A stretch of 39,071 nt of DNA, taken from positions 1-39,071 of the forward strand of contig JACQXW010000006.1 of the NCBI GenBank assembly GCA_016208535.1, read 5' to 3'. Each line of letters begins with the position of its first letter. The stretch's first letter is position 1. The position numbers and the translations under genes were made by a program. Source of the DNA: Candidatus Terrybacteria bacterium (GTDB lineage Bacteria; Patescibacteriota; Minisyncoccia; UBA9983). Below the pieces are notes generated by a model. The model was not told the origin of the DNA and did no database searches. It saw nothing but the letters and a program-made list of their open reading frames with translations. Of the stretch, positions 5,747 to 7,718 are shown in pieces.

Positions 5747-7231
5747 TTACTTCACATACCACTTCTTTCTGATCTCTTCTATTTCCTTTTTCTCCACCTC
5801 CTCCTTTGTTTCCTTCGCTTTTTTACCTAATTTCTCCATTTCTTTTTCTGGCAAAGCATTGAGTTCTTTTGCCCTCTTTTCAAGCCATTCTTCGGTATTT
5901 CTTGCAGGTTCGTCCAGTACTTCCTCAAGCAAAATATGCAGAATCTGGCCGATTTTTGGCCCTGGTTTCACGTGCAACAATTCTATAATTTTATTGCCGT
6001 CAATTTTGAGCATGCCAACAGAAAGCGGCTGCCGCAATGCCTCATCTATCATTGATTCATATTTGCGCAACCGATAAGGCGTTTCCTTTGGTTTGCCCAT
6101 GCCGATTCTGTCGCTAAATCTTACCTTCATTAAATCCCAGACATTTTCCGGCCCCACATTGCGCACAGTCCGGCGCACAGCAGAAAGAGTAATTTTCTCT
6201 GTATCTGAGAAAAACATATGATAGCGGATAAGTTTTGCCACCAGTTCAATGGTTTTTTTAGAAAATTTAAGCCGAGACAAAGCTCTTATCGCCATTTTGG
6301 CGCCAATTATCTCGTGGCCATAAAAGGTATAATCTTTTTTTTCTTTGCTCCATTGCCGAGAGGCGGGCTTGCCAACATCATGCAAAAGCGAAGCAATCCT
6401 TACCTCCAGAGGCCAGTTCTTGTCAGCTGCATGATCCAAAGCCTTCAAATTATGCTCCCAAACCGGGTATAAATGATCTTTGTTCTGTTTGACGCCATAC
6501 CCCTCTTCTAATTCCGGCAGAATATATTTCAACACCCCAAATTCCCGCATCATTTCAAAACCAATACTTGGCCTATCGGACATTATAATTTTAATAAATT
6601 CGTCTCTAATCCTCTCTTTGGAAATCATTTCCAAAAGATGCGCCTGTTTTTTAATGGCCTCTTGTGTTTCACGTGCAACCTTCCAGCCCAATTCTGCGGC
6701 AAAACGAATAGCCCTTATAATCCGCAAGGCATCTTCATCAAATCTCTCCTTTGGATTACCTACTGTCCGAATGATTTTGTCCTTTATGTCCTTTTGGCCA
6801 TTAAATAAATCAATTAACTTATTATCCATCCCTTCGACTACGCTCAGGGCAAGAGCATTTATCGTAAAATCCCGCCTCTTTAAGTCATCTTCAATGTTTC
6901 TCGTGAAACGAACCTCGTCCGGGTGCCGCTTGTCAGAATATTTTGCCTCCAGACGATAAGGGGTTATTTCAATAATTTTTAAACTCGGGTCATCAGCATC
7001 AGTAATAACTGCCACTGTGCCGAATTTGTTTTCATAAACTGTTTTTGGAAATAATTTCTGGATTTCCTCTGGTTTGGCATTAGTGGTAATGTCCCAATCT
7101 TTGGGTCCGCCAGCTGGCGGATTTTCCATCAATAAATCGCGCACGCAACCGCCAACCAAATAGGTCTCAAAACCGGCGTCTTTTAAAACTTGCGCTGTTT
7201 TAGAAATTATTTCAGGAATTTTAAAATCCAT
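5747..7231 (-). CDS. cca: CCA-adding enzyme / tRNA nucleotidyltransferase with HD domain
   Basis: VGGCVRD, DWDITT, RRDFTINA, EDALRIIRAIRF, LLHDVGK. Confidence 0.9.
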   Translation of the reverse strand: MDFKIPEIISKTAQVLKDAGFETYLVGGCVRDLLMENPPAGGPKDWDITTNAKPEEIQKLFPKTVYENKFGTVAVITDADDPSLKIIEITPYRLEAKYSDKRHPDEVRFTRNIEDDLKRRDFTINALALSVVEGMDNKLIDLFNGQKDIKDKIIRTVGNPKERFDEDALRIIRAIRFAAELGWKVARETQEAIKKQAHLLEMISKERIRDEFIKIIMSDRPSIGFEMMREFGVLKYILPELEEGYGVKQNKDHLYPVWEHNLKALDHAADKNWPLEVRIASLLHDVGKPASRQWSKEKKDYTFYGHEIIGAKMAIRALSRLKFSKKTIELVAKLIRYHMFFSDTEKITLSAVRRTVRNVGPENVWDLMKVRFSDRIGMGKPKETPYRLRKYESMIDEALRQPLSVGMLKIDGNKIIELLHVKPGPKIGQILHILLEEVLDEPARNTEEWLEKRAKELNALPEKEMEKLGKKAKETKEEVEKKEIEEIRKKWYVK

Positions 7232-7257
7232 ATTATTTTTGCGCCCGGCAGGATTCG

Positions 7258-7368
7258 CCCCGCACTATTTTGCTTAAATTATACGTCCCCAGAGGGATTC
7301 GAACCCCCAACGACGGTTCCGAAGACCGTTGTGATATCCGTTTCACCATGGGGACAAAAAGTGCGGGG
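7258..7368. mobile_element. MITE-like element with CCCCGCACT...AGTGCGGGG ends carrying tRNA-Arg
   Basis: Terminal inverted repeats CCCCGCACTATTT / AAAAAGTGCGGGG flank the tRNA at 7284-7355. Confidence 0.7.
7284..7355 (-). tRNA. tRNA-Arg (UCG)
   Basis: GTCCCCA/TGGGGAC acceptor, anticodon arm ACGGT-CT TCG GA-ACCGT, GGTTCGAATCC T arm; no encoded CCA. Confidence 0.95.
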
Positions 7369-7391
7369 TAAAAACCCTAGCGTGATACTTG

Positions 7392-7425
7392 CCCCGTAGT
7401 TAAAACGAAGTTTTATACTATGGGG
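7392..7425. repeat. 34-bp CCCCG-ended hairpin insertion in D-loop of the broken tRNA
   Basis: CCCCGTAGT-TAAAAC-GAA-GTTTTA-T-ACTATGGGG. Confidence 0.75.
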
Positions 7426-7490
7426 TCCGTTTCACCACAGGCGCAATATATTTAATCTAACATAGAAATGTTAAGATATAAAATAAAAAT

Positions 7491-7718
7491 ATGCAGACTG
7501 ATAAACAGAAAATAGGGGAAATAGGTGAAAATACAGCCTGTAAGTTTCTCATGAAACAAGGATTTATAATAAAAGACCGCAATTATCGCAAAAAATGGGG
7601 AGAAATTGACATAATAGCCCAAGATGAAACCGAATGGCAAGTGGATATAATGGCTGTTTTTCTTGATTTTAACGCCAAAAAGGCTAAAATAAGAACGACA
7701 GAAAATGTAATTTTGTAA
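7491..7718 (+). pseudogene. yraN: YraN-family protein with in-frame internal deletion
   Basis: IGEIGE..AC..L, RNY..KWGEIDIIA N-half joined directly to WQVDIMAV C-terminal part; the LVFVEVK segment is absent; 75 aa. Confidence 0.8.

Follow-up and report, generated by a model that had tools for sequence, protein, structure and literature searches.

Apparent in-place overwriting of tRNA genes by small hairpin-ended cassettes: a tRNA-Arg(UCG) gene nested in the remains of another

A tRNA-Arg gene inside a broken tRNA-Arg gene

The window, that is, the whole stretch of 39,071 nucleotides analyzed here, belongs to a metagenome bin of Candidatus Terrybacteria (28 contigs, 97.26% complete), referred to below as the source genome (G000). 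On its minus strand, from 7444 to 7240, fragments of an outer tRNA-Arg gene surround a hairpin of 34 nt and an insert of 111 nt that terminates in 9-nt inverted repeats (Table 1). The insert (7368-7258, minus strand) gives 72 of its nucleotides to an inner tRNA and is without room for a protein gene. What is left of the outer gene lacks the 3' strand of the anticodon stem, the variable loop, and the 5' strand of the T stem; upon excision of 7388-7425, its D arm is identical to that of the inner tRNA. The outer and inner 5' ends were returned by the repeat search as a 21-nt direct repeat (D2, 81%), and the 12-mer TGGTGAAACGGA, which is present in both, has no further occurrence in the 518,588-nt genome. 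The repeat search also returned the two arms of the insert as a 13-nt pair with 92% complementarity (I6), the exact inverted ends being 9 nt long. No target-site duplication was seen at the insert joints of the window.

Table 1. Features of the nested tRNA-Arg locus in the window, followed by further nests and remnants in the source genome (G006, G029, and L135 are the other genomes with the nested Arg locus)
Feature	Position	Strand	Basis or remark
Promoter-like site TTAACA-18-TATATT	7445..7474	-	10/12 matches; terminates 1 base ahead of outer tRNA base 1
Outer tRNA-Arg, piece 1: acceptor 5' strand GCGCCTG, TG (positions 8-9), GTGAAACGGA (D-stem 5' strand, D loop to GGA)	7426..7444	-	Direct repeat D2; collinear in G006 and G029
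D-loop hairpin insert, family F1: 34-nt stem-loop CCCC...GGGG (7425-7392), CAAG tail (7391-7388)	7388..7425	-	Model R1, 49 bits, E 6.4e-8
Outer tRNA-Arg, piece 2: remaining D loop, D-stem 3' strand TATCAC, position 26, anticodon-stem 5' strand, initial loop bases to U34	7373..7387	-	Homologous pieces in G006 and G029
tRNA cassette: head TTTA (7372-7369), 5' arm CCCCGCACT (7368-7360), spacer, inner tRNA, 17-nt spacer, 3' arm AGTGCGGGG (7266-7258)	7258..7372	-	Repeat I6, predicted arm helix; layout common to G006, G029, and L135
Inner intact tRNA-Arg(UCG), the functional gene	7284..7355	-	ARAGORN; Rfam RF00005, 62 bits, E 3e-11
Outer tRNA-Arg, piece 3: T-loop second half, T-stem 3' strand, acceptor 3' strand CGGGCGC, discriminator A	7240..7257	-	By comparison with the complete 3' half in G029
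CCA-adding enzyme gene	5747..7231	-	PolyA_pol head (5e-37), RNA-binding domain, HD, tRNA_NucTran2_2; begins 9 nt past the outer 3' end
Nested tRNA-Cys(GCA), outer gene intact	Contig C5, source genome		117 nt excised gives a 72-nt tRNA-Cys (ARAGORN)
Nested tRNA-Pro(GGG), outer gene intact	Contig C7, source genome		ARAGORN after excision
Val(CAC) with arms and 3' remnant, hairpin in T loop of remnant	Contig C24, source genome		
Orphan T arm beside Ala(UGC)	Contig C11, source genome		

The inner tRNA-Arg(UCG) is placed by ARAGORN at 7283-7356 and by the Rfam tRNA model at 7284-7355, with a score of 62 bits against a cut-off of 29, which bears out the preliminary description of the 111-nt insert as a hairpin-ended unit with a complete tRNA. 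It is the sole tRNA-Arg(UCG) that ARAGORN calls in the source genome. In an Rfam scan of 7150-7550 with E values of up to 10, the inner tRNA was the only real match, the rest being subthreshold hits to unrelated families, and an ARAGORN intron search of the source genome returned the identical 40 genes and called no outer gene.

The promoter-like site at 7445-7474 (minus strand) is likely, as a prediction from its sequence, to be the promoter of the entire unit. A TATATT or TATAAT box also precedes the outer 5' end in G006 and G029, and the minus strand between 7445 and the inner tRNA holds no further promoter-like site. In the RNA fold computed for 7236-7448 (minus strand), the outer acceptor strands, the hairpin, and the arms are all paired; its energy is -88.1 kcal/mol compared with -63 +/- 4.5 for shuffled sequences (z = -5.63), and none of 200 shuffles was as stable. 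Downstream, the gene for the CCA-adding enzyme adjoins the Arg locus not only in the window but also in G006, L135, G003, and G076.

Contigs in Logan from four DNA runs of one study span 6900-7622 with no differing letter and no gap; the runs listed with this locus include no RNA run. Since these contigs agree base for base, the misassembly that the preliminary description had named as a possible undoing of its account can be set aside, and the arrangement that it reported (outer pieces, hairpin, insert, and inner tRNA) is confirmed in every detail.

A DNA search among 60 relatives, supplemented with L135 from a public genome collection, placed the nested Arg locus in three other genomes: G006, of the same family (76% identity over 205 nt); G029, of a different family of the class; and L135. 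At the collinear locus of G029 (L003), the outer gene is complete, and excision of the hairpin with its tail and of the segment running from TTTA through the last G of the 3' arm yields a 73-nt tRNA-Arg(UCG) according to ARAGORN. An uninterrupted GCGCC-type tRNA-Arg(UCG), for which a comparison with related genomes had been suggested, was present in G038. The outer gene of the window retains U at position 34. Judged by these relatives, it was once a true tRNA-Arg(UCG) with the same anticodon as its cargo, and the outer pieces are those of a real broken tRNA-Arg paralog, as had been proposed. The further proposal that such a locus provides a route to replacement of an anticodon or isoacceptor found no support, with UCG also in the outer gene of G029 and matching anticodons in all 13 readable pairs discussed below. 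The locus is not an anticodon change.

The outer tRNA gene of the window is dead. About 20 nt are missing from its 3' half, and none of 44,400 in-silico excision variants of the window, by which the outer pieces were rejoined as had been recommended, yielded an ARAGORN tRNA across the joint. Past the insert, the outer gene keeps six bases in G006 and nothing in L135. The window, G006, and L135 have thus lost different 3' parts, which points to independent decay of one arrangement.

Recurrence of nests, rules of insertion, and the D-loop hairpin family

Nesting recurs well beyond the Arg locus. Inspection of the flanks of all 40 tRNAs called by ARAGORN in the source genome revealed nests or remnants at five of these loci, among them units with other cargo (Cys, Pro, and Val), which the preliminary description had proposed to look for. 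Outside the Cys nest on C5 lies an older hairpin-bearing 5' fragment, and a comparable extra layer is found in L112. Across the whole genome of G006 (650,844 nt), about 11 of 48 tRNA loci carry nests or remnants, as judged by eye. This genome holds an intact outer tRNA-Met with two inserts on C8, which ARAGORN accepts after excision, as well as 3' remnants with a T-loop hairpin after Ala(GGC), Ala(CGC), Gly(UCC), and Val(GAC). It also combines an uninterrupted Arg(CCU)-Ala(GGC) locus with a second copy that has a different Ala(GGC) and an old 3' third split by a hairpin. In both of the genomes examined completely, G000 and G006, every interrupted tRNA has an intact twin inside or beside it.

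ARAGORN called no Met, Asp, Thr-GGU, or Thr-CGU tRNA in the source genome. A scan of this genome for orphan T arms returned the known outer genes, one tmRNA, and the piece beside Ala(UGC), and no missing tRNA. The missing tRNAs form one cluster in G006 and hence probably were left unassembled in the source genome.

For tRNA-Cys, nests or remnants were found in 10 of the 30 genomes listed (five anticodon-loop nests and five 5' remnants). In the five nests, the insert always lies between positions 34 and 35, and the arms belong to at least three unrelated families; in G009, either of the tRNA-Cys sequence types can serve as resident or as cargo. The varied arm families and the exchangeable roles of the two types indicate that the events are recurrent and do not go back to one old accident.

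About half of the outer genes at the loci examined are fully intact. Those for tRNA-Cys in G000 and G010, which share their upstream gene, show compensatory differences throughout all stems, as do those for tRNA-Pro in G000 and G005 within the acceptor and T stems. Intact outer genes with such changes are what one would expect of purifying selection on functional genes, an observation that stands against an overwriting of the outer gene.

Outer and inner anticodons are identical in all 13 readable pairs, which cover six tRNA identities (Arg-UCG, 2; Cys, 5; Pro-GGG, 2; Leu-CAA, 2; Arg-CCG, 1; and Met, 1); these pairs, seven of them verified with ARAGORN and six read by eye, are not independent, as orthologous loci and pairs found with nested queries are included. 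Some 40 inserts, parsed by eye and without a formal count, all lie in unpaired parts of the cloverleaf: the D and T loops, position 26, and the anticodon loop, in which the site varies with the tRNA from 33/34 to 38/39. The helix of an insert starts with CCCC or CCCG and finishes with GGGG or CGGG. Ahead of it stands a 4-nt head (TTTA, TTTG, or CCTG) or, in the opposite orientation, CAAG, CAGG, or TAAA follows it; head and tail words are one signal on opposite strands. Arms can be shared by different cargo: the family that pairs CCTGCCCGCC... with ...GGCAGGCGGG encloses Cys in G010, Pro in G000 and G005, and Met in G006. The arm word of the window was also considered as a repeat family within its own genome, where a search for further copies of the ends had been advised, and was rejected, the arms CCCCGCAC / GTGCGGGG giving 12 8-mer matches over both strands, about the level that we estimate for a random 8-mer.

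The D-loop hairpin is, as the preliminary description had it, an insert separate from the tRNA unit, and it is a member of a conserved family, F1. Its members follow the pattern CCCC, a conserved AGTATAAA-type segment, a variable apex, TTTAACTAC, GGGG, and a CARG tail. In an alignment of 38 members, the CCC/GGG feet and the flanks are invariant, the tail is conserved, and the apex is variable yet paired; double changes are present at 7 of the 11 predicted pairs, in up to 18 sequences at one pair. The F1 covariance model gave 66 matches in 35 of 151 genomes of the class, with one to seven matches per genome and a single copy in the source genome. Such a low copy number is unlike that of typical miniature transposons and, in this respect, speaks against the overwriting of tRNA genes by cassettes. 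At the collinear Arg loci, pairing of the hairpin is maintained via double changes, which is odd for a dead relic.

Among 28 new F1 sites that were inspected, four or five lie in tRNA remnants beside an intact tRNA, one lies in a 16S leader, and the remainder are intergenic, often adjoining other GC-rich hairpins. One of the sites in tRNA remnants, in G076, is again at the Arg locus ahead of the gene for the CCA-adding enzyme. The family thus occurs in intergenic DNA and, with respect to the tRNA, in both orientations. The D-loop site of this tRNA-Arg type, between GGA and TATCAC, carries a hairpin insert in five genomes and a cargo unit in G009, a recurrence that may reflect either a hotspot or shared ancestry. 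A 16-mer of the hairpin matched at least 120 stretches in public genome contigs, mostly by chance in unrelated phyla; about 35 real hairpins were recognized by eye among the matches listed, nearly all in bins of Patescibacteria, Parcubacteria, or Saccharibacteria. In viral contigs, the same 16-mer had 11 matches, none of them a real hairpin, and hence there is no sign of a phage vehicle.

Overwriting by a tRNA cassette and competing explanations

The reading that we favor, and consider rather probable, is that a hairpin-armed tRNA cassette landed in a resident tRNA gene with the same anticodon and replaced it, whereupon the outer gene decayed except for its 5' part, which was kept as promoter and leader. 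The locus would then be best read as the work of a type of mobile element that repairs the tRNA gene it enters. In such a scheme, a cassette composed of head, arm, tRNA, and arm would enter an exposed loop of a tRNA gene; at the window, a resident tRNA-Arg(UCG) would have received the cassette in its anticodon loop, and the cargo would have taken over. Insertion would be lethal unless the cargo restored function, and only same-anticodon cases would survive. A cargo that decodes the same codons makes the insertion survivable and, given that the tRNAs are single copy and that survival depends on complementation, only same-anticodon pairs should be left. The split outer gene would subsequently be free to decay and might gather further hairpins, and renewed rounds would add layers.

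In this scheme, the inner pre-tRNA would still be transcribed from the old promoter and have the outer 5' part as its leader. As the promoter-like site abuts the outer 5' end, a leader role would explain why the 5' part and the hairpin survive at each of the four Arg loci whereas the 3' part decays. Conceivably, the cassette moves as a unit and is directed to tRNA loops that are unpaired, perhaps while the DNA is single stranded; the bias toward loops hints at a target folded as a single strand. With respect to the compensatory changes in intact outer genes, overwriting needs independent insertions into residents that had already diverged, and the different arm families at the Cys locus suggest that insertions of this kind are sufficient for the observed pattern.

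A transposase, a target duplication, or a pair of empty and filled sites was not found for this exact cassette. G000 has five Y1_Tnp open reading frames and G006 has four. Each of the five Y1 transposase-like genes of G000 is flanked by its own, different palindrome, and no Y1 gene lies near an F1 hairpin within the 120 pattern loci listed; on both counts, Y1 transposases were rejected as the partner enzyme. Neither the Y1 gene flanks nor the pattern loci that were checked revealed an enzyme tied to the arms or the hairpin. That the element is transposase-less and that it captured its tRNA, as put forward in the preliminary description, are conjectural.

Alternatively, the inserts might be true intervening sequences that are removed at the RNA level, which we regard as unlikely. 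An endonuclease would cut at the feet of the CCCC...GGGG helix, RtcB and archease would join the exons, and the intact outer genes would be functional; RNase P and RNase Z would free the inner tRNA from the intron, and the copy in the window would be a decayed former member. Exact excision gives canonical tRNAs of 72-75 nt, and the inserts are confined to unpaired regions and have common boundary words (by eye, YYTR as the head or, on the opposite strand, CARG as the tail). However, in the intact homologues, the two junctions lie opposite each other, again as judged by eye, on an internal loop at the base of the arm helix and not in a bulge-helix-bulge. Same-locus outer genes across genera retain all stems through compensatory changes, and the hairpins covary, as would befit functional introns; yet the same hairpin family occurs in both orientations and in intergenic DNA, many outer genes are plainly broken, and splicing leaves unexplained both the 13 of 13 identical anticodons and the absence of stand-alone interrupted tRNAs.

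The enzymes tell a similarly mixed story. RNase P and RNase Z leave ends that RtcB is not known to join. A tRNA-splicing endonuclease of the EndA family (PF01974) had no match at E <= 0.1 in the source genome, which is 97.26% complete, with a control that was positive in four archaea. The 518-kb genome has kept an archease-RtcB pair, located between secA and gatB (RtcB, E 1.8e-166; archease directly upstream, E 1.1e-28), but archease-RtcB operons are present in diverse bacteria anyway, according to PMC3973293.

In its widest form, to which we assign a still lower probability, the splicing reading would give CPR bacteria their own protein-dependent tRNA splicing, with mobile CCCC...GGGG hairpin introns that have a 4-nt head or tail, an undiscovered endonuclease, and sealing by archease-RtcB. 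The introns would house a second tRNA, so that one transcript would give two tRNAs, and the window would be a decayed example. To the broken outer copy of the window itself, splicing cannot apply. Removable intervening sequences had been offered as the alternative in the preliminary description and, for the window, do not stand up to the deletion of the outer 3' half.

Recombination without a dedicated cassette is likewise a doubtful explanation. Incoming or duplicated tRNA DNA would have been joined into the resident gene at short shared stretches in the D, anticodon, or T loop, and the hairpins would be separate colonizers of dead pieces. Some loci do have this appearance. The second Arg(CCU)-Ala(GGC) copy of G006 resembles a one-sided replacement, being identical on the left and having its right joint after the anticodon arm; the 5' remnants in G017 and G008 are in tandem and not nested, with 8 nt of the upstream flank repeated; and in L125 and at the Gln locus of G006, the remnant and the intact gene have identical first 12-13 nt. 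In contrast, nested cargo is bounded by inverted arms of conserved families that are common to different cargo tRNAs, and plain recombination does not create such arms. Furthermore, the insert in tRNA-Cys is always at 34/35 despite the differing arms.

Finally, an assembly artifact or a chance resemblance, as might be feared with a metagenome bin of 28 contigs, is so improbable that it can be dismissed in view of the identical contigs from four runs, the preservation of the arrangement in three other genomes, and the z-score of the fold (-5.6).

Relation to known systems and implications

None of the nearest known systems with which we compared the unit unites its features, namely, a length of about 110 nt without a protein gene, inverted arms, a complete tRNA as the cargo, and a target that has the same anticodon; in the open-access literature, no paper was found that deals with nested tRNA genes or with introns in the tRNAs of these bacteria. 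Archaeal tRNA introns, which in Thermoproteales occupy noncanonical positions, and split or tri-split tRNAs have structured inserts in the D, anticodon, and T loops with sequence families that have spread between tRNAs, and complementary leaders hold the split tRNA halves together, as stated in PMC10714607 (citing Fujishima 2009, 2010). Short structured inserts in tRNA loops that fall into sequence families are the point of likeness to these mobile introns, which EndA cuts at a bulge-helix-bulge and which interrupt genes that are the only copies. The present case, in contrast, concerns a bacterium in which no EndA was found, with no bulge-helix-bulge, with an intact twin for each interrupted gene, and with a whole tRNA in the insert.

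Integrases are said, with reference to work of Williams in 2002, to prefer the anticodon-loop and T-loop sublocations of tRNA genes. Elements that encode them target tRNA genes, supply a working tRNA, and leave fragments, as PMC9897764 relates; the words nested and hairpin are absent from that paper. The likeness thus comprises a tRNA target, an incomer that maintains a working tRNA, and debris that is left behind. The integrase elements described there measure kilobases, encode an integrase, and generate a direct repeat of part of the tRNA. Here, by contrast, the units are 111-120 nt long, have no protein gene and no terminal direct repeat, and show inverted arms with a whole tRNA nested.

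REP and REPIN sequences are a further point of comparison. A REP is a short, GC-rich, imperfectly palindromic sequence, one side of which bears a conserved 4-nt head; it occurs in either orientation, inverted pairs can form a longer hairpin, and the associated transposases are of the RAYT (Y1) type. The F1 hairpins resemble them in being palindromes with a conserved tetranucleotide on one side, as evident from the 38-member alignment, and Y1-type genes are present in the genome. REP sequences number tens to hundreds of copies, whereas F1 has one to seven per genome and one in the source genome, and the Y1 genes are flanked by other palindromes. To our knowledge, REP sequences are not found inside tRNA genes and do not carry one.

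A group I intron also comes to mind, given an insert in the anticodon loop of a tRNA gene from a bacterial lineage in which interrupted RNA genes are known. Such introns have a conserved catalytic core and a length of about 200 nt or more; here the insert, at 111 nt, is too short and has no such core, and no Rfam intron family matched with E values of up to 10. Likewise, the terminal inverted repeats (9 nt exact, or 13 nt at 92%) are reminiscent of a miniature inverted-repeat transposable element, from which the unit differs in having no target-site duplication and no large number of near-identical copies.

In conclusion, nesting apparently reflects a frequent and hitherto undescribed in-place overwriting of tRNA genes by small hairpin-ended cassettes in tiny groundwater bacteria. 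tRNA genes are among the most stable genes. The genomes considered here measure about 0.5-1 Mb and have mostly single-copy tRNAs, yet a tenth to a quarter of their tRNA loci carry the debris of older tRNAs. Nested or layered and marked by conserved hairpins, this debris suggests that tRNA genes are turned over quickly and in a site-directed manner by tiny self-compensating cassettes. The strategy would be selfish but safe, resembling that of integrating elements that rebuild their target tRNA, at a miniature scale and without a visible enzyme. Should the intact outer genes be spliced instead, they would represent the first known protein-spliced tRNA intron system in bacteria.

The arrangement also has consequences for annotation. 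Outer genes are skipped by tRNA finders, and their fragments may be miscalled. In addition, assemblies may be broken by nested repeats; this bin lacks the Met-Asp-Thr cluster, which in a relative includes a nest. The remnants themselves appear to be reused as promoter-leader or trailer structures.

Nested and flanked tRNA loci

Besides the Arg locus of the window, the same genome carries two nested pairs, in which an intact tRNA lies within an outer tRNA gene of the same anticodon, and a tRNA-Ala(UGC) locus flanked by a 9-nt inverted repeat (see table). The Cys locus holds an older, third 5' fragment containing a hairpin of the CCCGCC...GGCGGG type followed by CAAG, and the word that forms this hairpin was found again in nine other genomes at 91-97% identity. 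At the tRNA-Ala(UGC) locus, an orphan T arm and an acceptor strand with an ACCA end come after the gene.

Features located in the window and elsewhere in its genome
Feature	Location	Strand	Remarks
UPF0102 (YraN-like) ORF	window 7491-7718	+	75 aa; profile positions 1-42 of 80 matched
tRNA-Cys(GCA) inside tRNA-Cys(GCA)	C5:10199-10449 (L154)		nested pair intact
tRNA-Pro(GGG) inside tRNA-Pro(GGG)	C7:15109-15319 (L155)		nested pair intact
tRNA-Ala(UGC) locus	C11:3078-3300	minus	9-nt inverted repeat GGATCCCGT / ACGGGATCC on flanks
archease and RtcB, overlapping genes	C22:10831-12629 (L217:947-2745)		secA and gatB on either side

The bin of the same-family relative G006 contains an Arg(CCU)-Ala(GGC) locus twice (C7:985-1132 versus C9:28430-28580). 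One copy is plain; in the other, a different Ala(GGC) precedes the 3' third of the old Ala, which is interrupted by a hairpin in the T loop. The two copies may represent strains or paralogs.

Assembly and the tRNA complement

Position 7622 of the window lies within the UPF0102 (YraN-like) gene beside the Arg locus. Exactly there, contigs from three of four DNA runs of a single study (X2-X4) have approximately 158 additional letters compared with the window, and contigs from the remaining run (X1) have loose ends. The gene in the window seems to be a deletion allele.

ARAGORN detected no tRNA-Met, initiator, Asp, Thr(GGU), or Thr(CGU) in the whole of the window's genome, a bin that is 97% complete. 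Since these same genes are clustered on contig C8 of G006, a nested Met included, the corresponding region may have failed to assemble. Among its calls, which include G006 C3:31707-31780 and C20:11294-11369 of the window's genome, ARAGORN also reported a tRNA with the amber-reading anticodon CUA in G006, as well as a tRNA-Ile(UAU) in both genomes.

Y1 transposase and archease-RtcB genes

Five Y1_Tnp (IS200/RAYT-like) ORFs of 214-250 aa are present in the 518-kb genome (C28, C16, C4, C22, and C17; L149-L153), each flanked by a perfect palindrome that differs from one ORF to the next; G006 has four such ORFs. The archease-RtcB pair has been kept in this strongly reduced genome.

Hairpin copies outside tRNA genes

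At intergenic copies of the F1 hairpin, the conserved CCCC...GGGG stem-loop with its CARG tail (L034, L277, L279, L280, L284, L292, L293, and L295), other hairpins rich in GC often follow within 100-250 nt, as does a recurring AT-rich motif of the type GTTCGGACTAATTCAAGAATAC. Together, these elements look like a larger composite unit. A further copy, in reverse orientation and beside a short masked stretch of N, closely follows tRNA-Ile(GAU) in the 16S-23S rRNA spacer of another genome (G004:C2; L019 / L275).
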